NCBI GenBank assembly: GCA_965203565.1
Contig: OZ241896.1
Location: 876,182-940,181 of the forward strand
From: Vicinamibacterales bacterium
GTDB lineage: Bacteria > Acidobacteriota > Vicinamibacteria > Vicinamibacterales > UBA8438
Length of the DNA: 64,000 nucleotides
Reading direction: 5' to 3'
Part shown: positions 42,834-64,000 of the stretch, piece by piece
Position numbering within the stretch: position 1 is the first letter of the stretch
Layout of the letters: every line of letters starts with the position of its first letter
Notes under the pieces: generated by a model
What the model saw: only the letters and a program-made list of their open reading frames with translations
Databases searched by the model: none
What the model was told of the DNA's origin: nothing
Position numbers and translations under genes: made by a program

Positions 42834-42915
42834 TCCGAGAGCGGGACCGGCAGACTTCCGCCGCCCTTCGTTCGTCATAAGCTATGACAGCCTCGCCGCC
42901 CCGGCGCAGGAGCCG

Positions 42916-43539
42916 ATGCACAAGACCGACGAGGAGCTGGTCCGGATAGCCTCGCGCGGCGACACCGACGCGTTCAACGAGCTGGTGGCGCGGTGGGAGC
43001 GCCCGATCTACGCGCTCGCCTGCCGCACGCTGGGACGGGACGAGGACGCCCGCGACGTCTGTCAGGAAGCGTTCCTGCGCGCGTTTCGCGGCCTCAAGCG
43101 GTTCAAGGGCGAGGCGAAGTTCTCGTCCTGGCTGTACCGGATCGCTCTCAACCTCTGTCACGACTGGCTCCGGCGCCACCGGCGCGTCGGGTTCGTCCAG
43201 CCGCCGGAGGACGGCGATCCGGGCGGCCGCGCCGCGGTGGATCCGATCAACGAAACCGCCGAGGACGTGATCGTCCGCCGCGATCTGAGCCGGGCGGTCG
43301 CGAAGGGGATGGCGATGCTGCCGCCCGAACAGCGGACGGCCATCGTGCTCAAGGAGTATCACGGCTTCACGTTCCGGGAAATCGCCGAACTCGAAGCGTG
43401 CCCGCTCAGCACGGTCAAGACCCGGTTGTACCAGGGACTGAGCGTACTGCGGAAGCACCTCGAGCGGGAAGGGGTGCGGGCGCCGCTGGCGGCCCGTTCA
43501 AGGTATTCTTCGTATCCGCGGCTGGCGCGGGAGTCCTGA
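42916..43539 (+). CDS. ECF (group IV) sigma-70 factor
   Basis: AGGAG before ATG 42916. DAFNELVARWERPIY..., FSSWLYRIALNLCHDWLRR (region 2), YHGFTFREIAELEACPLSTVKTRLYQG (region 4). Confidence 0.88.
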   Translation: MHKTDEELVRIASRGDTDAFNELVARWERPIYALACRTLGRDEDARDVCQEAFLRAFRGLKRFKGEAKFSSWLYRIALNLCHDWLRRHRRVGFVQPPEDGDPGGRAAVDPINETAEDVIVRRDLSRAVAKGMAMLPPEQRTAIVLKEYHGFTFREIAELEACPLSTVKTRLYQGLSVLRKHLEREGVRAPLAARSRYSSYPRLARES

Positions 43540-44330: not shown

Positions 44331-44337
44331 TTGATAG

Positions 44338-45810: not shown

Positions 45811-45967
45811 CAGCCCGTGGTGGAACCCCGCGTCGCGCCGAGAGCGGTGAGGCGCCCGGCTGACAAGGCGTGAGGAGGGCGCATATTGGGCATACGCAAC
45901 CGACGAACAACGCCGTCAGGCGGGATGCATCGCCGCTCGAATGCAGCGGGGCTTTCACCACGGGCTG
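45811..45967 (+). mobile_element. 157-bp MITE, copy e, ~100 nt upstream of the giant gene start
   Basis: A perfect flanking repeat TTCA lies at 45807-45810 and 45968-45971. Confidence 0.85.
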
Positions 45968-45994
45968 TTCAGCCCCATGCTGACCCCGGTCCAG

Positions 45995-46011
45995 CCCCCC
46001 CCCCCCCCCCC
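45995..46011. repeat. 17-nt homopolymeric C tract, 34-55 nt upstream of the giant CDS start
   Basis: Counted directly. An in-frame TGA at 46018-46020 shows the tract is outside the giant CDS. Confidence 0.95.
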
Positions 46012-46065
46012 GGACGCTGACGCCTCGCCGCCGACCGCCGCCCCGTGCCGTCGCCTCTTCAGCCC

Positions 46066-49000
46066 GTGAGACCGCTTCGCGCCGCAAGATTCGTCGTCGG
46101 GCTGCTGACCGCCGCCGTCTCGTGGACGTTCGCCGTCGACGCCGCCGCGCAGGACGGGGCGCCGACCCTCTCCATCGATTCGCCGCGCGTCGCCGAGGGC
46201 CACAGCGGCTCCACCTCCCTGACCTTCACGGTGACGCTCGCTCCGGCGAGCCACAAGACGGTCACGGCGCCCTACGCGGACTCCCGGACCGGCACCGCCA
46301 CGGCCGGCGCCGACTACAACGCGCTCGCTCCGGGAACCCTGACCTTCACCGCGGGGGAAACGAGCAAGACCATCACCGTGTCCGTGATCGGCGATACGGC
46401 GGCCGAGTCGGACGAAACCGTGGTGGTGGCGCTGGGCAAGGCCGACGGCGCCGCGGTCGGAACCGCGGCCGGAACCGGGACGATCGCCGACGACGACACG
46501 GCTCCGGCGCTCTCCATCGATTCGCCGCGCGTCAACGAAGGCGACGAGGGCGCGGTGAACCTCACCTTCACGGTGACGCTCGCCCCGACGAGCACGAAGG
46601 AGGTGACCGTCGGATACGCCGAGGGCGCCGGCGGCACCGCCACGGCCGGCGCCGACTACAACGCGCTCGCCCCGGGAACCCTGACCTTCGCCGCGGGGGA
46701 CGCCAGGAAGACGGTCACCGTCTCGGTGATTCCGGACACGAAGGCCGAACCGAACGAAACCGTGGTGGTGACGCTGTCGAAGCCGGAGAACGCGACCATC
46801 GCCCGCGCGACCGGAACCGGGACGATCACCGACGACGACGCAGCCCGCCCGTCGCTCTCGATCGCGGGAGCGACGGTCACGGAAGGAACCGGGGGTTCGA
46901 CGGATCTGACCTTCACCGTGACGCTGAGCGCGGCCAGTGCGGCCGGGGTCACCGTGGACTACGCCACCGGGACCGGCGGTACGGCGGTCTCCGGAACGGA
47001 CTACACGGCCGTTTCCGGGACGCTGACCTTCACCGCGAACGACACCACCGAAACCCTTTCCGTCCCGGTCACGACCGACGCGACGGACGAAAACGACGAA
47101 ACGGTGACGGTAATCCTGTCGAACCCGGTGAACGCGACGATCTCCACCGCCTCCGGCGTCGGGACCATCACGGACGACGACGCCCCTCCGACGGTGTCCA
47201 TCGCCTCGGCGCGCGCGGCCGAGGGAGACAGCGGCTCGAACGACCTGGAGTTCACCGTGTCGCTCGGCGCCGTGAGCGGCCGCGAGATCACCGTGGACTA
47301 CGCCACCGGGACCGGCGGCACGGCGGTCTCCGGAACGGACTACACGGCCGTTTCCGGGACGCTGACCTTCGCCGCGGGCGTGACGAATCGAACGGTCACG
47401 GTCGCCACCATCGGCGACACCACCGACGAACCGAACGAAACGGTCGTCGTGGCGCTCCGCAACGCGGTGAACGCCTCGCTCGGCGCCGCCACCGCCACCG
47501 GAACGATCACCGACGACGACGACCCGCCCACGGTGACGCTCTCGCTGTCGTCGGGCTCGATCTCGGAGGCCTCCGGCACGACGGCGGTCTCGGCGACGCT
47601 GAGCCACGCATCGAGCGCAGCGACGACGATCGCCATCCCCGCCCGGTCGCTGGCCTGGACGGTTCCCGCGGATGCGTCCATCACCATCCCCGCGGGCGCG
47701 ACCGCGAACAGCGCGGACACGGTGACCCTCACCGCCATAGACAACACCTCCGACGAGCCGGACCGGAGGTACACGGTCACCGGTTCGGCGAGCAACGCGA
47801 TAGGCGCGGGCGCGGTGACCGGCGCCGCCCTCACCATCACCGACGACGACCCGAGCCCCGGCGGCCAGTGCGCGTCGGAGGGGGTCGACCTGCAGTTCGC
47901 GGTGTCTCCGGGGACGATCGCCGAAAACGGCGGGACCGCCACCGTAACGGTGAAGGCGCTCGCCCCCGACCTCGCCGTCGTCCAGGTGCTGTTCGGCTTC
48001 TCCGGAGCGACGCAAGGTACGCATTTCACGGTGACCGGGAGCGGGACCGCCCAGTCCGGCGTCGGCTGGCTGCTGGGCGTCCCGGGGGGCGCCGCGAGAA
48101 CCACCTCGACCTTCACGGTCACGGCGCAGGACAACAGCGATTTCGAGACCCGCACGCTGCGGATGGACATCGCTGTCCTGAACGTCGCCGGCTGTTCCTT
48201 CCCGTCGCAGGAAGTCGTCATCCGGGACGACGACGCCGCGCTGGTGACCTCCGCCGTCAGCGGCCAGGCGACGGAGGCGGGCGGCGCCGCCACCTTCACC
48301 GTGCGGCTGGCGAGCCGTCCCACGGCGAGCGTGTCGGTGGCGCTGTCGAGCGCCGACTCCGGCGAAGGGACCGTCAGCCCGACGAACCTCACCTTCACGC
48401 GCACGAACTGGAACTCACCGCAGACGGTCACGGTGACCGGAGTGGACGACGACTTCCACGACGGCGATCGGAGGTACGCCGTGCGCCTCGGCCGGCCCGC
48501 GACCACCGATGCCGGATACGGCCGGCTCGGCCCGCGGGAAGTGTCCGTCAGCACGACCGACGACGAGTCGCCGCCGCGGGTGACCCTGTCGGTGTCCCCG
48601 AGTTCCGTTTCGGAGAACGGCGGAACGGCGCGGGTCTCGGCGACCCTCGGCGTGGCCTCGGAGGCCGCGACCACGATCACGATCTCCCCGGTGTCCGGCG
48701 CCTACACCGTCGGAAGCGACGCGACGATCACCATACCCGCCGGCGCCACCGCGAACGCCGCCGACACGGTGACGGTGACCGCGGTGGACAACGGCGCGGA
48801 CGAGGTGGACCGGACGCCGATAGTGACCGGGACCGCCTCCAACCCGCTCGGCGTCGGCGCGGTCACCGGCGCCGTCCTCACGCTGACCGACGACGACGGA
48901 GCGCCGACGGTGATTCTGTCCGTCTCGCCGGCGCGCATCTCCGAAGCCGGGGGGACGGCGACGATCCGGGCGGCGCTGTCGAGCGCCTTTTCCTCGGACA

Positions 49001-52000
49001 TCGAAGTGTCCGTCTCCGGACTTCTCGGTGTCTACCGGGTCCCCGACACAGCGATCGTCATCCGGGCCGGTTCGACGACCAGCGAGAACACGTTGACCCT
49101 CACCGCGGCGAACAACCCGACCGACGCCCCCGACCGCGCGCTCGTGATTTCCGGGCGCGCCCGTTACACCACCGACTCCGGCGCCGCGGCGACGGCGGCC
49201 GTGCGCCCGGCGTCGCTGACCATCGTGGACGACGATCTGCCTTCGGGCTCTTCCCCGATCTTCATCAATGCCCGCGGGCAGAGGACCAGCGAGAGCAGCG
49301 CCGGGACCGGAACGACCTTCGCCATCGGGTTCCACGTCATCCTCTCCCACCCCGCCCGCAGCGAGGGCGTCACCGTGGACTACGCGGTGACTTCCGGCAC
49401 CGCGACCGCAGGCCAGGACTACCGCGCGGGACGCGACTTCGCGAACGTCCTGCGCGGCGGCGGCACGGTCCTGGGCGGCACGCTGACCTTCGCCGCCGGC
49501 GAGCAGCGGAAGTGGATCTACCTGGAGGGGCTGAAGGACGGAGTGACCGAACCGGTCGAGACGGTGGTCGTGGGGCTCAGTAACGCGACGAACGCGACGA
49601 TCGGACAGGCGACGATCCGCTCGACGATTTCGGACGGCGCGCTGCCGCCGTACCTGACGATCTCTCCGGTGCATCAGTACACCGGCGAAGGCGGCGTCAT
49701 GCGGTTCTCGGTGACGATGGATTCGCTGGCTTCCGGGACGGTCACCGTGGACTACGCCGACGCCGGCACGGGCACGGCGACATCCGGATCGGACTACACG
49801 GCGGTGACCTCCGGGACCCTGACGATGGGCAGTCTGGTCGAGTACATCCAGGTGCAGACGCTGAACGACACGGTGGACGAAGAGAACCACGAGACGTTCG
49901 TCCTGCGGTTGAGCAACGCGACGAACGCCACCTTCACCGACAACGCCGCCACGACGACCGGAACCGGCATCATCGTGGACGACGACGCCCCGCCGACCGT
50001 CTCCATCGACTCGCCCACCGTCGCCGAAGGCGACAGCGGACGCCGGAACCTCGACTTCACGGTGACCCTGGGGTCGGCCAGCGGGCGCACGGTCGAGGCC
50101 ACATACCGGGACGTCGCCGGGACCGCGGACACCCGCGACTATGTGGAAGTTCGCGGAACCCTGACCTTCGCGCCGGGGGAAACGAGCAAGACGGTGTCCG
50201 TCCCCGTGAAGGGAGACACGACGGACGAAGAAGACGAGACCCTGGACCTGCTTCTGACCAGCAACCACCTCACGCTCACCGCGTCGTCGCGGCGCGCGAC
50301 GGGAACGATCACGGACGACGACGACGAACCGCAACTGGGCATCTCCGCCGGGAGCGTCACCGAAGGGGACGACGGCTCGACGACGCTGACCTTCACCGTG
50401 AGCCTGAGCGCGGCGAGCGGGAAGTCGGTCACCGTGGAGTACGAGGACGCGGGCACGGGAACGGCGGCTTCCGGCGCGGACTATACCGCGCTCCCGGCGG
50501 GAACGCTCACTTTCGCCGCCGGCGAAACGAGCAAGACCGTGACGGTTTCCGTTACCGGAGACGAGACCGACGAACCGAACGAGACCGTCGTCCTCGAACT
50601 CAGCGATCCCGTGAACGCGACGATCTCGACGGCGTCCGCCTCCGGCACGATCACCGATGACGACGATGCCGCGACGGTGACGCTTTCGCTCTCCCCGGAT
50701 TCCCTCGCGGAAGGCGGCCGGGACGAGGTGAGCACGGTTACGGCGACGCTGGACCGCGCGACCGGCCGGGAGACGGTGGTCACGGTGTCCGCGGCGGCGG
50801 GGACGAACGCCGCCGCTTCCGACTTCCGGCTGAGTTCGAACACCGAACTCCGGATCGCCGCCGGCGCGACCTCGAGCACCGGCACGGTGACCATCACCGC
50901 GGTGGACAACGCCGCCGATCAACCGACGAGGAGCGTCACCGTGTCCGGTTCGGCGGCGAGCGACCTCGAAATCCGGGATCCGTCCGCGGTGACGCTGACG
51001 ATCACCGACGACGACCCGGCGCCGACGGCGGCGATCGACTCGCCGAGCGTCACCGAGGGCGACGACGGCGACACGGCGCTGCTGGGGTTCACCGTGAGTC
51101 TCAGCGCGGCGAGCGGCAAGACCGTCGAAGTCGCCTACGGCGAAGACGCCACCGAGAGCACGGCCGAATCAGGGACGGACTACACGGCCGTGGGGAGCGG
51201 CAAGGTCACCTTCACCCCCGGGGAGACCAAGAAGACGATAGCGGTATCGGTTACCGGAGACGAGCTGGACGAAGACGACGAGACCGTTTCGATCAAGTTG
51301 ACGAGCGCGAAGGAGGCGACGATCAACACCTCCGGCGACTCCGGCACGGGCACGATCACCGACGACGACGACGAGCCGTCACTCTCGATCTCCTCCCCGA
51401 GCGTGAGCGAAGGCGACAGCGGCGCCACCGACCTGGCCTTCACCGTGACCCTGGACGCGGCCAGCGGGCGGCGGATCACCGTCGCCTACGCGGACGCCGG
51501 GACGGGATCGGCCCGGAGCGGAACGGACTACGCCGCGATCAGCGGCGGCGCCCTGACCTTCGCGGCCGGCGAAACGAGCAAGACGGTGACGGTGTCGGTG
51601 CGGGGGGACACGGCCGACGAGCCGAACGAGACGGTGGTGGTGGCCCTGAGCAGCCCCACGAACGCGACGGTGTCGGCCACGGCGGGCCGCGGCACAGGGA
51701 CGATCACCGACGACGACGACGCGCCGACGGTGACGCTGGCGCTGTCCCGGACATCGATAGCGGAGAGCGGGGCGACCAACTCGGCGACGGTGACCGCGAG
51801 CCTGGACCGGGCGTCGTCCGAGGACACGACGGTGACGGTGTCGGCGGCGGCGGGGGCGGCCACGGCGGCGACGGACTTCACGCTGAGCGCCAGCCCGACG
51901 CTGACCATCGCGGCCGGCAGCACGAGCAGCAGCGGGACGGTCACGGTGACCGCGGTGGACAACACGCGGGACGAGGCGGACAAGAGCGTGACCGTGTCCG

Positions 52001-55000
52001 GTTCGGCGACCAACAGCCAGGGGATCACGCAGCCTTCGGCGGTGACGCTGGCGATCACCGACGACGACGATGCGCCGACGCTGTCGATCGACGCGCCGAG
52101 CGTGGCGGAGGGAAACAGCGGCTCGGCGGACCTGACGTTCACGGTGAGTCTGGACGCGGCCAGCGGGAAGGAGATCACCGTCGCGTACGCGGAGGGTACG
52201 GGCGGCACGGCGACGTCGGGCGCCGACTACACGGCGCCGAGCGGCGGGACGCTGACGTTCGCGGCGGGAGAGACGAGCAAGACGGTGACGGTCTCGGTGC
52301 GGGGGGACACGACCGACGAGCCGAACGAGACGGTGGTGGTGGCCCTGAGCAGCCCGACCAACGCAACCGTGTCGGCCACGGCGGGCAGCGGCGCCGGGAC
52401 GATCACGGACGACGACGATGCGCCGACGGTGACCCTGGTGCTGTCGCGGAGTTCGATAGCGGAGAGCGGGGCGGCCAACTCGACGACGGTGACCGCGAGC
52501 CTGGACCACCCTTCGTCGTCGGCGACGACCATCACGGTGGCGGCGGCGGCGGGAGCGGCCACGGCGGCGACGGACTTCGCGCTGAGCAGCAACACGACGC
52601 TGACGATCGCGGCCGGCGGCACGACCAGCAGCGGGACGGTGACGGTCACCGCGGGGGACAACACGCGGGACGACCCGGACAAGAGCGTGACGGTGTCGGG
52701 TACGGCGACCAACGCGCAGGGGATCACGCAGCCGGCGGCGGTGACGCTGACGATCACCGACGACGACGACGCGCCGACGGTGACCCTGGCGCTGTCGCGG
52801 AGTTCGATAGCGGAGAGCGGCGCGACCAACGCGGCGACGGTGACCGCGAGTCTGGACCGGGCGTCAAGTCAGCAGACGACGGTGACGGTTTCCGCGGCGC
52901 CGGGCGCGAACGCGGCGAACGGCGACTTCAGCCTGAGCGCCAGCCCGACGCTCACCATCGCGGCGGGGGCGACGAGCAGCAGCGGGACGGTGACGGTCAC
53001 GGCGGTGGACAACACGCGGGACCAGGTCGACAAGAGCGTGACGGTGTCGGGTTCGGCGGCGAACTCGCAGGGAATCACGCAGCCGTCGTCGGTGACGCTG
53101 ACGATCACCGACGACGACGGGGCGCCGACGCTGTCGATCGACGCGCCGAGCGTGACGGAGGGCGACAGCGGCTCGGCGAACCTGACGTTCACGGTGAGTC
53201 TGCGTCCGGCCAGCGGCCGGCAGGTGACGGTGAACTACGCGGAGGGAACGGGCGGCACGGCGACGTCGGGTACGGACTACACGGCGCTGAGCGGCGGGAT
53301 GCTGACGTTCGCGGCGGGGGAGACGAGCAAGACGGTGACGGTGCAGGTGCGGGGGGACACGACCGACGAGCCGAACGAGACGGTGGTGGTGGCCCTGAGT
53401 GGGGCAACGAATGCGACGGTGTCGGCCACGGCAGGCCGCGGCACAGGGACGATCACCGACGACGACGACGCGCCGAAGGTGACCCTGGCGCTGTCGCGGA
53501 CCTCGATCGCGGAGAGCGGCGCGACCAACGCGGCGACCGTGACCGCGAGCCTGGATCGGGCATCGTCCGCATCGACGACGGTGACGGTTTCGGCGGCGCC
53601 GGGGGCGGCCACGGCGGCGGGAGACTTCAGCCTGAGCAGCAACACGACGCTGACGATCGCGGCGGGCAGCACGAGCAGCAGCGGAACGGTGACGGTGACG
53701 GCGGTGGACAACACGCGGGACCAGGTCAACAAGAGCGTGACGGTGTCGGGTTCGGCGGCGAACTCGCAGGGAATCACGCAGCCGTCGTCGGTGACGCTGA
53801 CGATCACCGACGACGACGGGGCGCCGACGCTGTCGATCGACGCGCCGAGCGTGACGGAGGGCGACAGCGGTTCGGCGAACCTGACGTTCACGGTGAGTCT
53901 GAGTCCGGCCAGCGGCCGGCAGGTGACGGTGAACTACGCGGAGGGAACGGGCGGCACGGCGACGGCGGGAACGGACTACACGGCGCTGAGCGGCGGGATG
54001 CTGACGTTCGCGGCGGGGGAGACGAGCAAGACGGTGACGGTGCAGGTGCGGGGGGACACGACCGACGAGCCGAACGAGACGGTGGTGGTGGCCCTGAGCA
54101 GCCCGACCAACGCGACGGTGTCGAGCACCGCCGGCACGGGGACGGGGACGATCACCGACGACGACGACGCGCCGACGGTGACCCTGGCGCTGTCGCGGAC
54201 CTCGATCGCGGAGAGCGGCGCGACCAACGCGGCGACCGTGACCGCGAGCCTGGATCGGGCATCGTCCGCATCGACGACGGTGACGGTTTCGGCGGCGCCG
54301 GGGGCGGCCACGGCGGCGGGAGACTTCAGCCTGAGCAGCAACACGACGCTGACGATCGCGGCTGGCGCAACGAGCAGCACGGGGTCGGTGTCGGTGACGG
54401 CGGTGGACAACACGCAGGACGCGGCGAACAAGAGCGTAACCGTGTCCGGTTCGGCGACCAACTCGCAGGGAATCACGCAGCCGGCGGCGGTGACGCTGAC
54501 GATCACCGACGACGACGGGGCGCCGACGCTGTCGATCGACGCGCCGAGCGTGACGGAAGGCGACAGCGGCTCGGCGAACCTGACGTTCACGGTGAGTCTG
54601 AGTCCGGCCAGCGGCCGGCAGGTGACGGTGAACTACGCGGAGGGAACGGGCGGCACGGCGACGTCGGGTACGGACTACACGGCGCTGAGTGGCGGGATGC
54701 TGACGTTCGCGGCGGGGGACACGAGCAAGACGGTCACGGTCTCGGTGCGGGGGGACACGACCGACGAGCCGAACGAGACGGTGGTGGTGGCCCTGAGCAG
54801 CCCGACCAACGCGACGGTGTCGGCCACGGCAGGCCGCGGCACGGGGACGATCAACGACGACGACGCGACGCCGAAGGTGACGCTGGCGCTGTCGCGGACT
54901 TCGATCACCGAGAGCGGCGCGACCAACGCGGCGACGGTGACTGCGAGTCTGGATCGGGCATCGTCCGCATCGACGACGGTGACGGTTTCGGCGGCGGCCG

Positions 55001-58000: not shown

Positions 58001-61000
58001 GGGGCAGTCCGAGCGTGACGTTGACGGGTTCGACGACGGCGACGCCGAGCTTCACGGCTCCGAACCTGACGTCGGACGCGACGCTGACGTTCACGCTGAC
58101 GGTGACGGCGGACTTCGAAGGCGCGGCGGACGCGGTGGAGATCACGATCCGGGCGGACAACGACGGTCCGACGGCGAACGCGGGACCGGACCAGACGGTG
58201 GACGAGGGGGACACGGTGAACCTGTCGGGGACCGGCTCGGACCCCGAAGGCGATCCGGTGAGCTACTCGTGGAGCCAGACGGGGGGCAGTCCGAACGTGA
58301 CGTTGACGGGTTCGACGACGGCGACGCCGAGCTTCACGGCGCCGTCGGGTCTGACGTCGGACGCGGTTCTGACGTTCACGCTGACGGTGACGGCGGGGGG
58401 CGCGAGCGCGACGGACACGGTGGCGGTCACGGTCCAGGCGCCGACGCCGGCCGCATTGCCGTCGCTGTCGATCGATTCGCCGAGCGTGACGGAGGGGGAC
58501 AGCGGGACGGCGTCTCTGACGTTCACGGTGACGTTGAGCGCGGCGAGCGGCAGTGCGGTGACGGTGGGGTATGCGGACGCGGGTACGGGGACGGCGACGT
58601 CGGGCACGGACTACACGGCGCTGCCTTCGGGGACGTTGACGTTTGCGGCGGGCGAGACGAGCAAGACGGTGACGGTGCTGGTGCGTGGGGACACGACGGA
58701 CGAGGCGCACCAGACGGTGGTGGTGCAGTTGAGCGGGGCGACGAACGCGAGCATTTCGACGGCGTCCGGGACGGGGACGATCCGGGACGACGACGCCTTG
58801 CCGTCGCTGTCGGTGAACTCTCCGAGCGTGACGGAGGGGGACAGCGGAACGAAGAACCTGACGTTCACGGTGACGTTGAGCGCGGCGAGCGAGAAGCGTG
58901 TCCGTACGGTGTTCGCGCTGACGGGGGGCACGGCGACGCTGGGGACGGACTACACGACGACGCTGCTGAGGAACCGGTCGTCGCTGGTGTTCTCGGCGGG
59001 GGATACGAGCAAGTCGGTGTCGGTGTCGGTGCGTGGGGACACGACGGACGAGCCGGACGAGACGGTGGTGGCGCGATTGAGCGGCCCGCAGAACGCGGTG
59101 GTCGGGACGGGAACGGGGACGGGAACGATCACGGACGACGACGACGCGCCGACGGTGTCGATCGGTTCGGCGAGCGCGACGGAGGGGAACAGCGGGACGA
59201 CGGATCTGACGTTCACGGTGAGCCTGTCTGCGGCGAGCGGGAAGTCGGTGTCGGTGGCGTATGCGGATGCGGGGACGGGGACGGCGACGAGCGGTGCGGA
59301 CTACACGGCGCTGAGCGCGGGTCGGGTGACGTTCTCGGCGGGGGATACGAGCAAGGCGGTGACGGTGTCGGTGCGGGGAGACACGACGGACGAGCCGAAC
59401 GAGACGGTGGTGGTCACCCTGAGCAGCCCGACGAACACGAGCATCTCGACGGCGTCCGGGACGGGGACGATCACGGACGACGACGCGGCTCCGACGGTGA
59501 CGCTGGCGCTGTCGCGGAGTGCGATAGCGGAGAGCGGGACGACGAACTCGACGGCGGTGACGGCCCGCTTGAACCATGCGTCGAGCGCGGCGACGACGGT
59601 GACGGTGTCGGCGGCTGCGAGCACGAACGCGGTGAGCGGGGACTTCTCGCTGAGCAGCAACCGCACGCTGACGATAGCGGCGGGTTCGACGAGCAGCACG
59701 GGCGTGGTGACGGTGACGGCGGTGGACAACACGCAGGTTGCGGCGAACAAGAGCGTGACGGTGTCGGGTTCGGCGACGAACAGCCAGGGGATTGTGCAGC
59801 CGTCGTCGGTGACGCTGACGATCACGGAAGACGAACTGACGGTGAACGCGGGACAGGACCAGACGGTGACGGAGGGCGCCGGGGTGAGCCTGTCGGGGAG
59901 CGGTTCGGACCCTGAGAACCGTCCGTTGAGCTACTCGTGGAGCCAGACGGGGGGCAGTCCGAGCGTGACGCTGACGGGTTCGACGACGGCGACGCCGAGC
60001 TTCACGGCGCCGAACCTGACGTCGGACGCGACGCTGACGTTCACGCTGACGGTGACGGCGGGGGGCGCGAGCGGCACGGACACGGTGGCGGTCACGGTCC
60101 AGGCGGACAACGACGATCCGACGGCGAACGCGGGACAGGACCAGACGGTGACCGAGGGGGACACGGTGAACCTGTCGGGGAGCGGTTCGGATCCCGAGGG
60201 CGAGACGCTGAGCTACTCGTGGAGCCAGACGGGGGGCAGCCCGAACGTGACGTTGACGGGTTCGACGACGGCGACGCCGAGCTTCACGGCTCCGGAACTG
60301 AAGGCGAACGCGGTTCTGACGTTCACGCTGACGGTGACGGCGGGGGGCGCCAGCGCGACGGACTCGGTGGCGGTCACGGTCCAGGCGGACGACGACGGCC
60401 TGACGGTGGACGCGGGAGCGGACCAGACGGTGGACGCGGGGGACACGGTGAACCTGTCGGGGAGCGGCTCGGACCCCGAGGGCGATCCGGTGAGCTACTC
60501 GTGGAGCCAGACGGGGGGCAGCCCGAACGTGACGTTGACGGGTTCGACGACGGCGACGCCGAGCTTCACGGCGCCGAGCGTGACGGCGGACGCGACGCTG
60601 ACGTTCCGGCTGCTGGTCCGGGCGGGCAGCGACAGCGCGGCGGACACGGTCGACGTCACCGTCCGGGCGGCGGCATTGCCGACGCTGTCGATCGATTCCC
60701 CGAGCGTGAACGAGGGGGACAGCGGCTCGGCGAACCTGACGTTCACGGTGACGTTGAGCGCGGCGAGCGCCAGCCAGGTGACGGTGGCGTATGCGGACGC
60801 GGGGACGGGAACGGCGACGAGCGGGACGGACTACACGGCGCTGCCTTCGGGGACGTTGACGTTCTCGGCGGGGGATACGAGCAAGACGATCACGGTGTCG
60901 GTGACGGGGGACACGACGTACGAGTCCAACGAGACGGTGGTGGTGCAGTTGAGCAGTCCGACGAACGCGACGGTGTCGTCGTCTGCGGGGAGCGGGACGG

Positions 61001-64000
61001 GGACGATCCGGGACGACGAGCGGCCGATGCTGTCGGTGAATTCTCCGAGCGTGACGGAGGGAGACAGCGGCTCGACGAACCTGACGTTCACGGTGAGCCT
61101 GAACCCGGCGAGCGGGCGGAACGTTGCGGTGGTGTTCGGGATCACGGGGGGGACGGCGACGTCGGGCACGGACTACACGACGTCGCTGCAGAACAACCGG
61201 TTGCGTCTGCGCTTCCGGCCGGGGGAGACGAGCAAGTCGGTGTCGGTGTCGGTGCGGGGGGACACGCTCGACGAGCCGGACGAGACGGTGGTGGCGCAGT
61301 TGAGCGGGGTTTCCCTTGGCGCGGAGATCGGGACGGGAACCGGGACGGGGACGATCACGGACGACGACGACGCGCCGACGGTGTCTATCGGTTCGGCCAG
61401 CGTGACGGAGGGGAACAGCGGCTCGACGGATCTGACGTTCACGGTGAGCCTGGACGCGGCGAGCGGCAAGCAGGTGACGGTGAACTACGCGGACGCGGCG
61501 AGCGGCACGGCGACGAGCGGTGTGGACTATACGGCGCTGAGTGCGGGTCGGTTGACGTTCGCGGCGGGGGAGACGAGCAAGTCGGTGTCGGTGTCGGTGC
61601 GTGGGGACACGACGGACGAGCCGGACGAGACGGTGGTGGTGCAGTTGAGCGGGGCGACGAACGCGGCGGTGTCGTCGTCTGCGGGGCGCGGGACGGGGAC
61701 GATCACGGACGACGACGCGGCGCCGTTTCTGCGGACCGGCCCGGCGCGCGTGGCGGAGGGGGACGGCGGCTCGGCCTCGCTGACCTTCACGTTGACGCTG
61801 GTGTCGGCGAGCGGGAAGTCGGTGTCGGTGGCGTATGCGGACGCGGGGACGGGGACGGCGACGAGCGGTACGGACTACGCGGCGCTGAGTGCGGGGACGT
61901 TGACGTTTGCGGCGGGTGAGACGAGCAAGACGCTCACGGTGTCGGTGACGGGGGACACGGCGACCGAGCCGAACGAGACGGTGGTGGTGTCGCTGAGCAG
62001 TCTGACGAACGCGAGGTTCCTGACGGCGAGCATGGCGAGCGTGACGGGGACGATCACGAACGACGACAGCTTCCCGACGGCGAATGCGGGACCGGACCAG
62101 ACGGTGGACGAGGGCGACACGGTGAACCTGTCGGGGAGCGGTTCGGACGCTGACGGCTCCCCGCTGAGCTATGCGTGGAGCCAGACGGGGGGCAGTCCGA
62201 GCGTGACGCTGACGGGTTCGACGACGGCGACGCCGAGCTTCACGGCTCCGAACCTGACGTCGGACGCGACGCTGACGTTCACGCTGACGGTGACGGCGGA
62301 CTTCGAAGGCACGGCGGACGCGGTGGAGATCACGATCCGGGCGGACAACGACGGTCCGACGGCGAATGCGGGAGTGGACCAGACGGTGGACGAGGGGGAC
62401 ACGGTGAACCTGTCGGGGAGCGGTTCGGACCCCGAGAACGAGGCGCTGAGCTACTCGTGGAGCCAGACGGGGGGCAGTCCGAACGTGAGTCTGACGGGGT
62501 CGGCGACGGCGACGCCGAGCTTCACGGCGCCGTCGGGTCTGACGTCGGACGTGACGTTGACGTTCACGCTGACGGTGACGGCGGGCGGGGCGAGCGCAAC
62601 GGACACGGTGGACGTCACGGTCGAGGCGGCGGTTTTGCCGACGCTGTCGGTCGATTCTCCGAGCGTGACGGAGGGGGACAGCGGCTCGACGAACCTGACG
62701 TTCACGGTGAGTCTGAGCCCGGCGAGCACGCGGCAAGTCAACGTGGTGTTCGGGATCACGGGGGGTACGGCGACGGCGGGTACGGACTACACGACGTCGC
62801 TGCAGAACAACCGGTTGCGGCTGCGCTTCCGGCCGGGGGAAACGCGCAAGACGGTGTCGGTGTCGGTGCGGGGGGACACGCTCGACGAGCCGGACGAGAC
62901 GGTGGTGGCGCGGTTGAGCGGGGTTTCCTTTGACGCGCAGATCGGGACGGGCGCCGGGACGGGGACGATCACGGACGACGACGACGCGCCGACGGTGTCG
63001 ATCGGTTCGGCCAGCGTGACGGAGGGGAACAGCGGCTCGACGGATCTGACGTTCACGGTGAGCCTGTCTGCGGCGAGCGGCAAGCAGGTGACGGTGAACT
63101 ACGCGGACGCGGGGACGGGGACGGCGACGAGCGGTGTGGACTACGCGGCGCTGAGTGCGGGGCGGTTGACGTTCGCGGCGGGGGAGACGAGCAAGTCGGT
63201 GACGGTGTCGGTGCGTGGGGACACGCTCGACGAGCCGGACGAGACGGTGGTGGTGCAGTTGAGCGGGGCGACGAACGCGGCGGTGTCGTCGTCTGCGGGG
63301 AGCGGGACGGGGACGATCACGGACGACGACGCGGCGCCGCTGCTGCGGACCGGCCCGGCGAGCGTGACGGAGGGGGACAGCGGCCCGGCCTCGCTGACCT
63401 TCACGTTGACGCTGCTGGCGGCGAGCGGCAAGCCGGTGACGGTGGCGTATGCGGATGCGGGCACGGGGACGGCGACGAGCGGCACGGACTACACGGCGCT
63501 GAGTGCGGGGACGTTGACGTTCGCGGCGGGGGAGACGAGCAAGACGCTCACGGTGTCGGTGACGGGGGACACGGAGGCCGAGACGAACGAGACGGTGGTG
63601 GTGTCGCTGAGCAGTCTGACGAACGCGAGGTTCCTGACGGCGAGCATGGCCAGGCTGACGGGGACGATCACGGACGACGACAGCTTCCCGACGGCGAATG
63701 CGGGAGCGGACCAGACGGTGGACGAGGGGGACACGGTGAACCTGTCGGGGAGCGGTTCGGACCCTGACGGCGATCCGGTGAGCTATGCGTGGAGCCAGTC
63801 GGGCGGCAGCCCGGCGGTGACTTTGACGGGGGCGACGACGGCGACGCCGAGCTTCACGGCGCCGAACCTGACGTCGGACGCGGTTCTGACGTTCACGCTG
63901 ACGGTGACGGCGAACTTCGAAGGCGCGACGGACACGGTGGACGTCACCGTCCGGGCGGACAACGACGGCCCGACGGCGAACGCGGGACAGGACCAGACGG
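46066..64000 (+). CDS. Giant secreted Calx-beta / PKD-like multi-repeat protein (>5,978 aa, 3' end beyond window)
   Basis: Absent from ORF track (no stop in window). GTG 46066 (alternative GTG 46045): MRPLRAARFVVGLLTAAVSWTFAVDAAAQDGAPTLSIDSPRVAEGHSGSTSLTFTVTLAPASHKTVTAPYADSRTGTATAGADYNALAPGTLTFTAGETSKTITVSVIGDTAAESDETVVVAL..GTIADDD (canonical Calx-beta). I hand-checked frame 1 as open at 47521-48240 and 49141-49740, and it is still in frame at 63961 (NDGPTANAGQDQT). There are roughly fifty ~95-120-aa beta-sandwich modules. Confidence 0.85.
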   Translation, partial: MRPLRAARFVVGLLTAAVSWTFAVDAAAQDGAPTLSIDSPRVAEGHSGSTSLTFTVTLAPASHKTVTAPYADSRTGTATAGADYNALAPGTLTFTAGETSKTITVSVIGDTAAESDETVVVALGKADGAAVGTAAGTGTIADDDTAPALSIDSPRVNEGDEGAVNLTFTVTLAPTSTKEVTVGYAEGAGGTATAGADYNALAPGTLTFAAGDARKTVTVSVIPDTKAEPNETVVVTLSKPENATIARATGTGTITDDDAARPSLSIAGATVTEGTGGSTDLTFTVTLSAASAAGVTVDYATGTGGTAVSGTDYTAVSGTLTFTANDTTETLSVPVTTDATDENDETVTVILSNPVNATISTASGVGTITDDDAPPTVSIASARAAEGDSGSNDLEFTVSLGAVSGREITVDYATGTGGTAVSGTDYTAVSGTLTFAAGVTNRTVTVATIGDTTDEPNETVVVALRNAVNASLGAATATGTITDDDDPPTVTLSLSSGSISEASGTTAVSATLSHASSAATTIAIPARSLAWTVPADASITIPAGATANSADTVTLTAIDNTSDEPDRRYTVTGSASNAIGAGAVTGAALTITDDDPSPGGQCASEGVDLQFAVSPGTIAENGGTATVTVKALAPDLAVVQVLFGFSGATQGTHFTVTGSGTAQSGVGWLLGVPGGAARTTSTFTVTAQDNSDFETRTLRMDIAVLNVAGCSFPSQEVVIRDDDAALVTSAVSGQATEAGGAATFTVRLASRPTASVSVALSSADSGEGTVSPTNLTFTRTNWNSPQTVTVTGVDDDFHDGDRRYAVRLGRPATTDAGYGRLGPREVSVSTTDDESPPRVTLSVSPSSVSENGGTARVSATLGVASEAATTITISPVSGAYTVGSDATITIPAGATANAADTVTVTAVDNGADEVDRTPIVTGTASNPLGVGAVTGAVLTLTDDDGAPTVILSVSPARISEAGGTATIRAALSSAFSSDIEVSVSGLLGVYRVPDTAIVIRAGSTTSENTLTLTAANNPTDAPDRALVISGRARYTTDSGAAATAAVRPASLTIVDDDLPSGSSPIFINARGQRTSESSAGTGTTFAIGFHVILSHPARSEGVTVDYAVTSGTATAGQDYRAGRDFANVLRGGGTVLGGTLTFAAGEQRKWIYLEGLKDGVTEPVETVVVGLSNATNATIGQATIRSTISDGALPPYLTISPVHQYTGEGGVMRFSVTMDSLASGTVTVDYADAGTGTATSGSDYTAVTSGTLTMGSLVEYIQVQTLNDTVDEENHETFVLRLSNATNATFTDNAATTTGTGIIVDDDAPPTVSIDSPTVAEGDSGRRNLDFTVTLGSASGRTVEATYRDVAGTADTRDYVEVRGTLTFAPGETSKTVSVPVKGDTTDEEDETLDLLLTSNHLTLTASSRRATGTITDDDDEPQLGISAGSVTEGDDGSTTLTFTVSLSAASGKSVTVEYEDAGTGTAASGADYTALPAGTLTFAAGETSKTVTVSVTGDETDEPNETVVLELSDPVNATISTASASGTITDDDDAATVTLSLSPDSLAEGGRDEVSTVTATLDRATGRETVVTVSAAAGTNAAASDFRLSSNTELRIAAGATSSTGTVTITAVDNAADQPTRSVTVSGSAASDLEIRDPSAVTLTITDDDPAPTAAIDSPSVTEGDDGDTALLGFTVSLSAASGKTVEVAYGEDATESTAESGTDYTAVGSGKVTFTPGETKKTIAVSVTGDELDEDDETVSIKLTSAKEATINTSGDSGTGTITDDDDEPSLSISSPSVSEGDSGATDLAFTVTLDAASGRRITVAYADAGTGSARSGTDYAAISGGALTFAAGETSKTVTVSVRGDTADEPNETVVVALSSPTNATVSATAGRGTGTITDDDDAPTVTLALSRTSIAESGATNSATVTASLDRASSEDTTVTVSAAAGAATAATDFTLSASPTLTIAAGSTSSSGTVTVTAVDNTRDEADKSVTVSGSATNSQGITQPSAVTLAITDDDDAPTLSIDAPSVAEGNSGSADLTFTVSLDAASGKEITVAYAEGTGGTATSGADYTAPSGGTLTFAAGETSKTVTVSVRGDTTDEPNETVVVALSSPTNATVSATAGSGAGTITDDDDAPTVTLVLSRSSIAESGAANSTTVTASLDHPSSSATTITVAAAAGAATAATDFALSSNTTLTIAAGGTTSSGTVTVTAGDNTRDDPDKSVTVSGTATNAQGITQPAAVTLTITDDDDAPTVTLALSRSSIAESGATNAATVTASLDRASSQQTTVTVSAAPGANAANGDFSLSASPTLTIAAGATSSSGTVTVTAVDNTRDQVDKSVTVSGSAANSQGITQPSSVTLTITDDDGAPTLSIDAPSVTEGDSGSANLTFTVSLRPASGRQVTVNYAEGTGGTATSGTDYTALSGGMLTFAAGETSKTVTVQVRGDTTDEPNETVVVALSGATNATVSATAGRGTGTITDDDDAPKVTLALSRTSIAESGATNAATVTASLDRASSASTTVTVSAAPGAATAAGDFSLSSNTTLTIAAGSTSSSGTVTVTAVDNTRDQVNKSVTVSGSAANSQGITQPSSVTLTITDDDGAPTLSIDAPSVTEGDSGSANLTFTVSLSPASGRQVTVNYAEGTGGTATAGTDYTALSGGMLTFAAGETSKTVTVQVRGDTTDEPNETVVVALSSPTNATVSSTAGTGTGTITDDDDAPTVTLALSRTSIAESGATNAATVTASLDRASSASTTVTVSAAPGAATAAGDFSLSSNTTLTIAAGATSSTGSVSVTAVDNTQDAANKSVTVSGSATNSQGITQPAAVTLTITDDDGAPTLSIDAPSVTEGDSGSANLTFTVSLSPASGRQVTVNYAEGTGGTATSGTDYTALSGGMLTFAAGDTSKTVTVSVRGDTTDEPNETVVVALSSPTNATVSATAGRGTGTINDDDATPKVTLALSRTSITESGATNAATVTASLDRASSASTTVTVSAAAGANAAAGDFRLSSNATLTIAAGSTSSSGTVTVTAVDNSTDEADKSVTVSGSATNSQGITQPAAVTLTITDDDDAPTLSIDAPSVTEGDSGSANLTFTVSLSPASGRQVTVNYAEGTGGTATSGTDYTALSGGMLTFAAGDTSKTVTVQVRGDTTDEPHQTVVVQLSGPTNASLATASGTGTIRDDDALPSLSVSSPSVTEGDSGTKNLTFTVTLSAASEKRVRTVFALTGGTATLGTDYTTTLGRNPPRSSLVFSAGQTSRSVSVTVRGDTTDEPDETVVARLSGAQNAVIGTGTGTGTITNDDAAPTVTANAGSDQTVDEGDSVSLSGSGSGPAGEALSYAWRQTGGSPSVTLTGSATATPSFTAPNLTSNATLTFTLTVTAGGSSATDAVAITVRADNDGPTANAGQDQTVDAGDTVNLSGSGSDPENEALSYSWSQTGGSPNVSLTGSATATPSFTAPSGLTSDAVLTFTLTVTAGGASATDTVAITVEAPAALPTLSIDSPSVNEGDSGSANLTFTVTLSAASASQVTVAYADAGTGTATSGTDYTALPSGTLTFSAGDTSKTITVSVTGDTTYESNETVVVQLSSPTNATVSSSAGSGTGTIRDDERPMLSVNSPSVTEGDSGSTNLTFTVSLNPASGRNVAVVFGITGGTATSGTDYTTSLQNNRLRLRFRPGETSKSVSVSVRGDTLDEPDETVVAQLSGVSLGAEIGTGTGTGTITDDDDAPPVSIGSASVTEGNSGSTDLTFTVSLDAASGKQVTVNYADAGTGTATSGADYAALSAGRLTFAAGETSKSVSVSVRGDTTDEPDETVVVQLSGATNAAVSSSAGSGTGTITDDDAAPFLRTGPARVAEGDSGPASLTFTLTLVSASGKSVSVAYADAGTGTATSGTDYAALSAGTLTFAAGETSKTLTVSVTGDTATEPNETVVVSLSSLTNARFLTSSMARLTGTITNDDSFPTANAGPDQTVDEGDTVSLSGSGSDADGSPLSYAWSQTGGSPSVTLTGSTTATPSFTAPNLTSDATLTFTLTVTADFEGAADAVEITIRADNDGPTANAGPDQTVDEGDTVNLSGTGSDPEGDPVSYSWSQTGGSPNVTLTGSTTATPSFTAPSGLTSDAVLTFTLTVTAGGASATDTVAVTVQAPTPAALPSLSIDSPSVTEGDSGTASLTFTVTLSAASGSAVTVGYADAGTGTATSGTDYTALPSGTLTFAAGETSKTVTVLVRGDTTDEAHQTVVVQLSGATNASISTASGTGTIRDDDALPSLSVNSPSVTEGDSGTKNLTFTVTLSAASEKRVRTVFALTGGTATLGTDYTTTLLRNRSSLVFSAGDTSKSVSVSVRGDTTDEPDETVVARLSGPQNAVVGTGTGTGTITDDDDAPTVSIGSASATEGNSGTTDLTFTVSLSAASGKSVSVAYADAGTGTATSGADYTALSAGRVTFSAGDTSKAVTVSVRGDTTDEPNETVVVTLSSPTNTSISTASGTGTITDDDAAPTVTLALSRSAIAESGTTNSTAVTARLNHASSAATTVTVSAAASTNAVSGDFSLSSNRTLTIAAGSTSSTGVVTVTAVDNTQVAANKSVTVSGSATNSQGIVQPSSVTLTITEDELTVNAGQDQTVTEGAGVSLSGSGSDPENRPLSYSWSQTGGSPSVTLTGSTTATPSFTAPNLTSDATLTFTLTVTAGGASGTDTVAVTVQADNDDPTANAGQDQTVTEGDTVNLSGSGSDPEGETLSYSWSQTGGSPNVTLTGSTTATPSFTAPELKANAVLTFTLTVTAGGASATDSVAVTVQADDDGLTVDAGADQTVDAGDTVNLSGSGSDPEGDPVSYSWSQTGGSPNVTLTGSTTATPSFTAPSVTADATLTFRLLVRAGSDSAADTVDVTVRAAALPTLSIDSPSVNEGDSGSANLTFTVTLSAASASQVTVAYADAGTGTATSGTDYTALPSGTLTFSAGDTSKTITVSVTGDTTYESNETVVVQLSSPTNATVSSSAGSGTGTIRDDERPMLSVNSPSVTEGDSGSTNLTFTVSLNPASGRNVAVVFGITGGTATSGTDYTTSLQNNRLRLRFRPGETSKSVSVSVRGDTLDEPDETVVAQLSGVSLGAEIGTGTGTGTITDDDDAPTVSIGSASVTEGNSGSTDLTFTVSLDAASGKQVTVNYADAASGTATSGVDYTALSAGRLTFAAGETSKSVSVSVRGDTTDEPDETVVVQLSGATNAAVSSSAGRGTGTITDDDAAPFLRTGPARVAEGDGGSASLTFTLTLVSASGKSVSVAYADAGTGTATSGTDYAALSAGTLTFAAGETSKTLTVSVTGDTATEPNETVVVSLSSLTNARFLTASMASVTGTITNDDSFPTANAGPDQTVDEGDTVNLSGSGSDADGSPLSYAWSQTGGSPSVTLTGSTTATPSFTAPNLTSDATLTFTLTVTADFEGTADAVEITIRADNDGPTANAGVDQTVDEGDTVNLSGSGSDPENEALSYSWSQTGGSPNVSLTGSATATPSFTAPSGLTSDVTLTFTLTVTAGGASATDTVDVTVEAAVLPTLSVDSPSVTEGDSGSTNLTFTVSLSPASTRQVNVVFGITGGTATAGTDYTTSLQNNRLRLRFRPGETRKTVSVSVRGDTLDEPDETVVARLSGVSFDAQIGTGAGTGTITDDDDAPTVSIGSASVTEGNSGSTDLTFTVSLSAASGKQVTVNYADAGTGTATSGVDYAALSAGRLTFAAGETSKSVTVSVRGDTLDEPDETVVVQLSGATNAAVSSSAGSGTGTITDDDAAPLLRTGPASVTEGDSGPASLTFTLTLLAASGKPVTVAYADAGTGTATSGTDYTALSAGTLTFAAGETSKTLTVSVTGDTEAETNETVVVSLSSLTNARFLTASMARLTGTITDDDSFPTANAGADQTVDEGDTVNLSGSGSDPDGDPVSYAWSQSGGSPAVTLTGATTATPSFTAPNLTSDAVLTFTLTVTANFEGATDTVDVTVRADNDGPTANAGQDQT
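53131..55560 (+). repeat. Intragenic tandem array, 699-bp (233-aa) unit = Calx-beta + non-canonical B module; about 3.5 near-identical copies
   Basis: CTGTCGATCGACGCGCCGAGCGTG recurs at 53131, 53830, 54529 and 55228 (exactly 699 nt apart). More diverged A/B pairs extend back to ~50.3 kb (e.g. 52081). Confidence 0.85.
55918..56478 (+). other. PKD/REJ-like Ig-fold module pair inside giant CDS
   Basis: ..PTVTANAGSDQTVDEGDSVSLSGSGSGPAGEALSYAWRQTGGSPSVTLTGSATATPSFTAPNLTSNATLTFTLTVTAGGSSATDAVAITV.. occurs twice. Confidence 0.65.
56480..58260 (+). repeat. Intragenic ~1.8-kb segment (4 Calx-beta + 1 PKD-like) duplicated 4,188 nt downstream
   Basis: Antisense track ORFs 56985..57281, 57339..57602, 57687..57932 and 57981..58214 reappear at +4188 with 0-3 aa differences. 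Confidence 0.8.
57883..58450 (+). other. PKD/REJ-like module pair inside giant CDS
   Basis: Same motif (FPTANAGPDQTVDEGDTVSLSGSGSDADGSPLSYAWSQTGGSP...). Confidence 0.65.
59836..60668 (+). other. PKD/REJ-like module triplet inside giant CDS
   Basis: Three consecutive copies of the A(N/D)AGxDQTVxxGxxVxLSGSGSDPExxxLSYSWSQTGGSP motif. Confidence 0.65.
60668..62448 (+). repeat. Second copy of the ~1.8-kb intragenic segment
   Basis: See 56480-58260. A third, more diverged partial copy starts about 1,614 nt further on (61173 vs 62787). Confidence 0.8.
62071..62630 (+). other. PKD/REJ-like module pair inside giant CDS
   Basis: Same motif; part of the +4188 duplicate. Confidence 0.65.
63685..64000 (+). 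other. PKD/REJ-like modules inside giant CDS, continuing past the window end
   Basis: FPTANAGADQTVDEGDTVNLSGSGSDPDGDPVSYAWSQSGGSPAVTLTG...; a second module starts at ~63964. Confidence 0.6.

Follow-up and report, generated by a model that had tools for sequence, protein, structure and literature searches.

The nearest tested analogue of the gene considered here is BapP of Pseudoalteromonas tunicata, which combines Calx-beta with BIg_9 domains, needs Ca2+ and adjoins type 1 secretion genes (PMC12153261). For the Calx-beta domain CBD1 of NCX1, the Ca2+ ligands are E385, D421, D446, D447, I449, E451, D498, D499 and D500 (Giladi et al., PMC3386913), and occupation of these sites rigidifies the interdomain linker, the structure of apo-CBD1 being lost (PMC3386913). 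Calx-beta "eukaryote-like proteins" (ELPs) are enriched in sponge symbionts (PMC9531527, PMC11706023), and the aggregation factors of sponges are themselves Calx-beta proteins (PMC5400394, PMC11670116). In a 64-kb stretch of DNA from a Vicinamibacterales bacterium (the window), a giant gene that begins at nucleotide 46,066 and is still open at the window end is predicted to encode a secreted chain of Calx-beta and PKD modules. The 3' end of the gene lies beyond the window, and the C-terminus of the window protein is consequently unseen.

Functionally, the sequence of this gene is best read as that of a cell-surface adhesin or fibre, and on this point we retain the proposal of an initial annotation made from the nucleotide sequence alone. 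With little more than even confidence, we favour a Sec-exported, barrel-anchored rod adhesin that would be stiffened by Ca2+; the broader reading, a Ca2+-stiffened surface adhesin, is graded much higher. The initial annotation overlooked the probable autotransporter-type C-terminus, as well as a poly-C tract and an upstream open reading frame (ORF) in the leader.

The open frame and its modules

From the GTG at 46,066, frame 1 runs for 5,978 codons without a stop; the stop-free stretch extends from 46,021 to 63,999, with an in-frame TGA at 46,018 upstream of the GTG. The G+C content by codon position is 0.58/0.61/0.92 (0.92 at the third position, GC3; the window genome has 72% G+C), which is the pattern of real coding sequence. 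The frame is absent from the ORF list because the ORF tool does not report frames left open at the end of the source, and the initial description of an open frame exceeding 5,978 aa and missing from the ORF track is thus confirmed. In an independent assembly of the same species (L082; ENA ERZ25068358, a 1.15-Mb contig), which matches the window at 99.4% identity in the first 4 kb of the gene and at 99.2-99.5% throughout the region, the same gene is called as 8,040 aa (a length only, without the sequence), so that about 2,060 residues lie past the window end.

The visible protein is composed of 18% Thr, 13% Ala, 13% Ser, 10% Gly and 8% Asp, and is very acidic, with a net charge of about -441 over 5,978 residues and just two cysteines (C602 and C710, both in module 6). 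The scarcity of cysteine and the high negative charge would suit a protein that is exported unfolded and folds once it meets Ca2+-rich surroundings. Between 52,000 and 64,000 the gene shows a strong positive GC skew (+0.15 to +0.23) together with AT skew, which probably reflects codon and amino-acid bias (Thr, Gly, Asp, Ser) and not replication.

At the N-terminus, residues 1-29 are arranged as in a Sec signal, with basic, hydrophobic and AxA-like parts, in agreement with the initial annotation and likewise by reading of the sequence. Residues 2-60 are 64-68% identical to the N-termini of five relatives (L004-L007 and L009) and 56% identical to that of a sixth (L008), and the N-terminus of L023 is 64% identical over residues 8-59. 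The remainder was mapped by a Pfam scan of the translated frame and by tiling with hidden Markov models (HMMs) derived from the protein's own units, A denoting a canonical Calx-beta module, B and B' divergent units and P a PKD unit. The features of the gene, all on the plus strand, are as follows.

46066..64000, + strand: giant ORF, 5,978 codons, open at the window end
46066..46152, + strand: Sec-type signal peptide, residues 1-29, VRPLRAARFVVGLLTAAVSWTFAVDAAAQ, read from the sequence
46159..47523, + strand: four canonical Calx-beta modules, residues 32-486 (Pfam, self-derived HMMs)
47524..47853, + strand: short divergent Calx-like module B', residues 487-596 (self-derived HMMs)
47854..48237, + strand: module 6, a divergent beta-sandwich-like unit with C602 and C710 (BACON, 24 bits, below the cut-off)
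48238..48570, + strand: module 7, NWNSPQTVTVTGVDDD, initially called cadherin-like; a third divergent Calx-beta-like class
48571..49239, + strand: two more B' modules, residues 836-1058 (self-derived HMMs)
49270..50667, + strand: four canonical Calx-beta modules, the first with a 13-residue insertion (self-derived HMMs)
50668..55914, + strand: fifteen modules (B A A B A B B A B A B A B A A), partly a tandem A-B di-module
55918..63999, + strand: cassettes of Calx-beta (3-4) then PKD (2-3) modules, with ten complete PKD units and an eleventh cut (Pfam, self-derived HMMs)

The self-derived HMMs divide the protein into 54 modules, comprising 30 canonical Calx-beta units, 11 B units, two odd modules, ten complete PKD units and one PKD unit cut by the window end; the initial estimate had been about fifty beta-sandwich modules. 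Pfam annotation of the frame, which had been suggested as a check, matches Calx-beta (PF03160) in 31 stretches with totals of 591.5 and 589.1 bits, and the K319L-like PKD family (PF22352) in ten stretches with a total of 554.6 bits. Single modules also score well above the cut-off of 27 bits that applies to each family, one canonical A module alone reaching 53 bits on PF03160 and one PKD module alone 71.9 bits on PF22352, and the PKD units match Big_9 in addition. The first PKD unit begins at residue 3285 (nucleotide 55,918), from where the cassettes follow in the order AA-PP, AAAA-PP, AAAB-PPP, AAAA-PP and AAA-P, the next P being cut by the window end. Pfam and the self-derived HMMs thus agree with the Calx-beta and PKD-like cassettes first described from 55.9 kb onward, and the coordinates and consensus strings given at that time are accurate.

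Taken singly, the B units fall below the Calx-beta cut-off and show weak similarity to a LapA domain in Pfam. In hhalign, however, their profile and the canonical one align over their full length (probability 97.6%, E 4.7e-12). As the B profile has no significant sequence match in the PDB, folds were compared instead. The AlphaFold model of a B unit is a beta-sandwich (pLDDT, the predicted local distance difference test score, 89.7) and its top Foldseek matches are 3gin and 2dpk (both NCX1 CBD1), CALX CBD1 and the Calx-beta domain of integrin beta4, with E of about 1e-5 and template-modelling (TM) scores of 0.62-0.69. By profile and predicted fold, the B units are divergent Calx-beta domains with no separate fold, and not a kind of their own as initially described.

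The label "cadherin-like" likewise has to be given up for module 7 (48,238-48,570), for which no cadherin family is found among the Pfam matches and the best match is Calx-beta at 23.8 bits, just below the cut-off. An alignment of ten repeats of this class matches the canonical profile with 84% probability (E 7e-6), and six of the ten match Calx-beta while none matches cadherin. Repeats of the module-7 type recur dozens of times in other giant proteins, one of which (P0275) matches in 59 stretches. Over its entire length the protein has one cadherin-type match only, to Cadherin_4 in a PKD region, with 18.2 bits where the cut-off is 25.1. With the B units and module 7 read as Calx-like, about 43 of the 54 modules are Calx-beta in the broad sense.

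The A-B di-module recurs with a period of 699 nt and about 92% identity, large copies in general share 78-93% DNA identity and cassette copies of 1.4-3.6 kb 79-93%, the closest pair of cassettes reaching 0.89-1.00 identity per 150-nt window. The regular Calx/PKD order, which had been remarked upon as an unusual "grammar", reads from these copies (the 699-nt A-B period and the cassette copies of up to 3.6 kb) as the trace of recent tandem and segmental duplications rather than as a designed syntax.

The profile of the canonical modules matches NCX1 CBD1/CBD2 with E 2e-21, and the acidic positions of CBD1 are largely kept in the 30 canonical modules. The equivalents of D421, D447 and E451 are present in all 30, those of E385 and of E454 in 28 of the 30 each, and those of D498-500 in 27-29, and the position of D446 is occupied by Gly. 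E454 is counted here as a Ca1 ligand, which we assume from the behaviour of the E454K mutant and from general knowledge. The equivalence of E385 and D498-500 is by our own motif match (CLENCG with TEGDSG, TIFDDD with TITDDD), the HMMER alignment to CBD1 spanning profile positions 33-96 only. In the structural work on CBD1, E454 figures only as the mutant E454K, which replaces the Ca1 ion (PMC3386913). The B units also hold acidic residues at the equivalent ligand places. From this conservation we infer that folding and stiffening of the module chain would depend on Ca2+.

Secretion and anchoring

Evidence on the missing C-terminus comes from relatives. Nine relatives with a complete 3' end (L004-L009, L012-L014) terminate in one homologous domain of about 400 aa, which closes in W, F or another residue. 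Six of these nine (L004-L009) also share the signal peptide (56-68% identity over residues 2-60), and these six are all of the 3'-complete relatives in which that signal peptide is found, every one of them barrel-ended. The Pfam family Autotransporter (PF03797, cut-off 26 bits) is matched above threshold by L013 (34.6 bits) and L014 (42.4 bits). In the AlphaFold model of a further relative, P0262, a helix (residues 172-204) precedes a barrel (residues 300-666), residues 222-283 being of low confidence, and the barrel superposes best on autotransporter beta-domains (BrkA, TM 0.62; EspP, 0.61; also Hbp and NalP), with only a loose match to TonB-dependent receptors. The barrel profile has no significant sequence match in the PDB.

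One relative, P0274, repeats the N-terminal module order of the window protein, including modules 6 and 7 and the insertion-bearing module, and on its contig (L125) the barrel resumes in another frame after an assembly frameshift, scoring 341 bits and ending in STMRW and a stop. The best relatives of the cassettes come from Vicinamibacterales metagenome-assembled genomes (MAGs), at 64-67% identity. A protein search with the barrel profile gave 14 matches, of which the two that were looked up (L092 and L093) have no DNA in common with the window, and a metagenome scan with a narrower barrel alignment (A4) gave 29 loci, none of them from the window species. An initial protein search returned no exact copy and a longest match of 2,293 aa; its index seems to be without giant products.

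On the favoured reading, the N-terminal signal seen in the sequence would take the chain through Sec, and a C-terminal autotransporter-type barrel of about 400 aa, following a long helix as in the relatives, would insert in the outer membrane to export and anchor it. Each Calx-beta module would then bind Ca2+ at its tip beside the linker, at the acidic CBD1 positions that are conserved here, so that the chain of at least 54 modules would fold and stiffen outside the cell into a rod of a few hundred nanometres. The PKD units and the odd modules are, speculatively, candidate binding surfaces, and slippage at the poly-C tract of the leader would probably turn expression on and off.

Several points weigh against this reading. 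The C-terminus of the window gene is outside the window, and because of this the barrel is an extrapolation from relatives. Vicinamibacterales barrels are below the Pfam Autotransporter threshold on their own, and the barrel-domain HMM finds the domain at the extreme C-terminus (most closing in W or F) in only 51 of 266 relatives, though many of the others are fragments. Relatives from other lineages end differently: L018 ends in something else, and the tail of L010 looks, by eye and not from a scan, like a sorting domain of type 9 secretion. In classical autotransporters the passenger is a beta-helix, and we know of no tested precedent for the export of about 7,500 beta-sandwich residues through such a barrel. 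In addition, Ca2+ binding, surface location and adhesion are all predictions.

The variety of C-terminal ends leads to a second possibility, namely that the product is a secreted or otherwise anchored matrix protein (PEP-CTERM/exosortase, type 9, or free) of a biofilm or a host-facing matrix. Calx-beta giants do vary in their ends, as the type 9-like tail of L010 illustrates; MYXO-CTERM and gliding-motility C-terminal domains occur among the source names of the matches, and 215 of the 266 relatives show no barrel. Many of these barrel-less matches, however, are fragments at contig ends, and the nearest relatives, whether by signal peptide, cassette identity (64-67%) or module order, all bear the barrel; we regard this matrix protein as rather unlikely. 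It is improbable, to a clearly greater degree, that the gene encodes an RTX/Bap-type adhesin exported by type 1 secretion in the manner of LapA, MpIBP, SiiE or BapP, its RTX repeats and secretion signal then lying in the 2,000 C-terminal residues not seen here and its N-terminus holding the rod at the surface. The best-studied giant Ca2+-dependent repeat adhesins do use the type 1 route, and BapP, which adjoins type 1 genes, shares with the window protein both Calx-beta and a match to Big_9. Against this, the window protein has a clear N-terminal Sec-type signal in place of a retention module, and its visible 5,978 aa contain neither a GGxGxD RTX motif nor a HemolysinCabind match (the last 2,060 residues or so lie beyond). 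Nor were type 1 secretion genes (ABC, membrane fusion protein or TolC-type) found within 16 kb upstream, the downstream side lying outside the window; for the adjacent ABC protein the listed domains are two ATPase domains with ABC_tran_Xtn and ABC_tran_CTD, none of them of the transporter type. Moreover, all complete relatives with the same signal peptide end in the barrel and not in RTX repeats.

That the frame is an assembly artefact of collapsed or expanded repeats, or a decaying pseudogene that is never expressed, we consider extremely improbable. The gene is indeed highly repetitive, frameshifts are present in the low-coverage long-read relatives L001 and L125, and the leader of the window allele carries a miniature inverted-repeat transposable element (MITE, a short non-autonomous type of transposon). 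However, the frame is stop-free over 17.9 kb with its GC3 of 0.92, and its longest exact repeat is just 254 bp, which makes assembly collapse unlikely. An assembly artefact had also been named at the outset as what would undo the interpretation, and none was seen: L082, which calls an intact product of 8,040 aa, and L001, a relative with 88% protein identity that is colinear with the window at 92.8% over 6.6 kb, are independent assemblies that agree in their order with the window.

The homopolymeric leader

Phase-variable homopolymers are known at adhesin genes of pathogens, as poly-C in the Bordetella fim promoters and as poly-G in the signal-peptide region of Neisseria pilC. Within the 64 kb analysed, just two homopolymers of at least 9 nt are found, C17 at 45,995 and C16 at 1,798, and both are located at the 5' ends of genes for repeat proteins. 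Upstream of the giant gene the following features are arranged.

45995..46011, + strand: homopolymeric C17 tract, 55 nt before the start codon (homopolymer scan)
45977..46069, + strand: upstream ORF MLTPVQPPPPPPDADASPPTAAPCRRLFSP, which reads through the C tract and whose TGA overlaps the GTG start (GTGA) (leader comparison)
45811..45967, no strand assigned: 157-bp MITE-like insertion with 12-bp terminal inverted repeats, CAGCCCGTGGTG and CACCACGGGCTG, and a duplicated flanking TTCA (strain comparison)

The tract has 17 C residues in the window and 15 in two contigs of the same species (L082 and L079) whose flanks are 98-99% identical, a difference in which homopolymer errors of assembly are possible, and a third contig of the species (L123) breaks off inside the C run. 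Most related genes are likewise preceded by such tracts: runs of C or G, 12-33 nt long, are situated upstream of the gene in twelve relatives from several phyla (L003-L009, L001, L023, L026, L047 and L125). In 1.88 Mb of fetched DNA, 13 of the 22 runs of at least 11 nt are found at most 400 nt from the 5' boundary of a long open frame, where about 12% would be expected by chance, several of the remaining nine being left out solely by the filters used.

Three Vicinamibacterales species share a conserved leader motif, AGTTYCCTYCAGYCCCATGCYGA, with the tract behind it. A short ORF begins at the ATG of this motif and translates the tract into prolines. If the tract is C17, this upstream ORF ends at the TGA that overlaps the GTG start, and the arrangement in L005 is the same (ATGA); if the tract is C15, it ends 48 nt before the main start. 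L006, L008 and L023 have it in fusion with the main frame. Over 11 loci the upstream ORF is fused in three, overlaps the start in four and ends upstream in four; these counts match chance and therefore neither support nor refute translational coupling, and three about equal states fit a switching locus while proving nothing. As a new element of the analysis, the poly-C leader with its upstream ORF suggests, from its sequence, probable phase variation of the giant gene. A leader in which polyproline would stall the ribosome was also considered as the purpose of the tract and was rated less likely, because some relatives bear G tracts. The leader (45,100-46,200) has no match in Rfam. The MITE-like element splits the conserved leader motif; it is absent from L082 and L079, and present in L124, a contig from another sample. 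In a Pseudomonadales relative (L043:9782-9796), a G15 run lies inside a Calx-like module and the frame changes across it, which would be either an intragenic switch or a homopolymer sequencing error.

The other homopolymer of the window belongs to a second repeat-rich gene.

3..1868, - strand: second repeat-rich secreted protein gene, running off the left window end (ORF, repeat units)

Its units of about 115 aa (TIASSPASGMTYGAGETI...LALGTHALANQAGHKVNG) are also found N-terminally in P0276 and P0277, two giants that bear the barrel, and its G16 tract (window 1798-1813) is located in the 5' coding region, between the ATG and the core of the signal peptide. Judged from the sequence, this position has the classic layout for phase variation by frameshifting.

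Genomic setting and relation to known systems

Giant Calx-beta proteins are common, and the window gene encodes one more predicted giant Ca2+-binding repeat adhesin. With the first 1,200 residues as query, an exhaustive protein search matched 79,139 representative proteins at E<=1e-3. At the stricter limit of E<=1e-30 there were 19,652, and the 150 best matches almost all have lengths of 2,000-7,700 aa. In the open literature searched, Calx-beta and autotransporters are nowhere discussed together in the sense of a barrel-exported passenger.

The window is chromosomal, containing GAPDH, triose-phosphate isomerase, tRNAs and TrmFO. The best named relatives of its GAPDH are from Acidobacteria MAGs (82-83% identity), and an identical GAPDH and near-identical contigs are found in many metagenome samples. 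The MAGs that hold cassette relatives belong to Vicinamibacterales, Azotimanducaceae (Gammaproteobacteria), Latescibacterota, Arenicellales, Dehalococcoidia and Nitrospirales, clades that are typical of sponge microbiomes, and 18 of the 29 barrel-bearing metagenome loci come from MKWU01, a metagenome of the sponge Aplysina aerophoba. By analogy with these sources, a sponge origin of the window organism is plausible. Recent horizontal transfer was considered and rejected: the G+C content of gene and flank matches in the window and in L004-L008, and the similarity across phyla is therefore not a recent import. Single Vicinamibacterales chromosomes hold several paralogous Calx/PKD barrel proteins, namely OZ241843.1 (L004 and L006) and OZ241898.1 (L005 and L017); the C-terminal barrels of L004 and L006 are identical and their poly-C tracts differ (C21 and C23, respectively).

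Just upstream of the giant gene lies a pair of genes.

42908..44335 (approximate, by synteny), + strand: extracytoplasmic function (ECF) sigma factor of 207 aa and zf-HC2 anti-sigma factor

The pair is syntenic within the window species only, and neither it nor two small proteins are conserved beside the genes of the relatives; these upstream genes are for that reason not counted as part of a system. A predicted membrane protein of 101 aa at 45224-45529, with a CAACH motif of the CxxCH haem-binding-like type, is also syntenic only within the species. Elsewhere, an island of lower G+C (0.65-0.68) at about 32,880-38,310, between a gene for a 342-aa protein and TrmFO, carries a ParB helix-turn-helix protein, a methyltransferase with an HNH domain, a PAPS-reductase-like protein and a cysteine desulfurase. 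In other strains the same site is occupied by GmrSD with an SNF2 helicase and ParB_N, by DndB with DUF4007, or by nothing, and from this cargo it looks like a hotspot for Dnd-like defence systems. A sequence of about 170 bp recurs at 2543-2707, 5654-5822 and approximately 42,660-42,830 with about 93% identity (secondary BLAST matches of L082:14280-14450) and may be a small dispersed repeat element. A tRNA-like call by ARAGORN at 11987-12084, with an undetermined two-base anticodon (cc) and in or beside the ORF of a FAD-binding protein, is probably a false positive.

A wider reading, which we hold to be doubtful, is that the gene belongs to a family of giant "beta-sandwich autotransporters", dependent on Sec and a barrel, with a Calx-beta/PKD passenger folded by Ca2+, that would be shared among unrelated phyla which live side by side, probably in sponges (Acidobacteriota, Gammaproteobacteria and others), and whose expression would be switched by poly-C or poly-G slippage in a conserved upstream ORF. 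In such a family the length of the tract would determine whether the upstream ORF ends before the start of the gene, overlaps it (GTGA, ATGA or CTGA, where coupling is possible) or is fused to the main frame.

By itself, the window protein changes little, being one giant Ca2+-binding repeat adhesin more; what adds interest is the probable anchoring of a beta-sandwich passenger by an autotransporter-type barrel, together with the homopolymeric leader. Were the family real, the passage of thousands of beta-sandwich residues through an autotransporter-type barrel would stretch the current picture of type V secretion, which is one of beta-helix passengers of modest size, and would also suggest Ca2+-driven folding as a pulling force. 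Homopolymer tracts at 5' ends in several phyla of uncultured, probably host-associated bacteria would similarly extend contingency-locus phase variation, known from pathogens, to environmental symbionts. Furthermore, with sponge aggregation factors being Calx-beta proteins, Calx-beta rods of symbionts could engage or imitate the adhesion system of the host.

Compared with BapP and the RTX/Bap giants (LapA, MpIBP, SiiE), the window protein shows the same tandem Calx-beta and BIg_9/PKD-like repeats in a rod-like extender role, and BapP likewise has Ca2+ sites predicted in its linkers and a predicted Sec signal (PMC12153261). BapP is, however, far smaller, with an N-terminal beta-propeller of 226 aa and 12 beta-sandwich repeats, and is encoded beside type 1 genes, whereas the 5,978 aa seen here include no propeller and no RTX repeats, type 1 genes are absent upstream and the relatives are barrel-ended. 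The type Va autotransporters (BrkA, EspP, Hbp, NalP) are resembled by the relatives in the Sec signal, the long helix followed by a barrel in the model, the terminal aromatic residue, the match to PF03797 and the superposition of the fold. They differ in that the passenger here is a beta-sandwich chain of 5-8 times the usual length and not a beta-helix, and in that the barrel region of the relatives has about 370 residues, versus 250-280 in the solved structures, the barrel of the window gene itself being unseen.

In its leader, the giant gene is similar to the Bordetella fim and Neisseria pilC loci in having a long homopolymer, of a length that differs among assemblies (C17 and C15), at the 5' end of a predicted surface adhesin gene, and the second repeat gene of the window is of the Neisseria pilC type in having its tract within the 5' coding region. 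In contrast to those loci, the tract of the giant gene lies in a short upstream ORF and not in a mapped promoter, and it is known by sequence only, from uncultured environmental bacteria. The Calx-beta ELPs of sponge symbionts are of the same Pfam family as the giant protein, but are described as domain counts and not by architecture, anchor or regulation (PMC9531527, PMC11706023). Finally, the Calx-beta domains of NCX1 and CALX (CBD1/CBD2) and of integrin beta4 have with the giant protein a common family by Pfam and by profile (E 2e-21) and a common predicted fold, and the ligand positions of NCX1 CBD1 are kept here, the DDD at the C-terminal tip included; in NCX1 this DDD makes the linker to the following domain more rigid. 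The difference, apart from the replacement of D446 by Gly in the canonical modules, is one of number and location: a eukaryotic membrane protein with one or two such domains, cytoplasmic and regulatory, compared with about 43 copies in what is predicted to be an extracellular bacterial chain.

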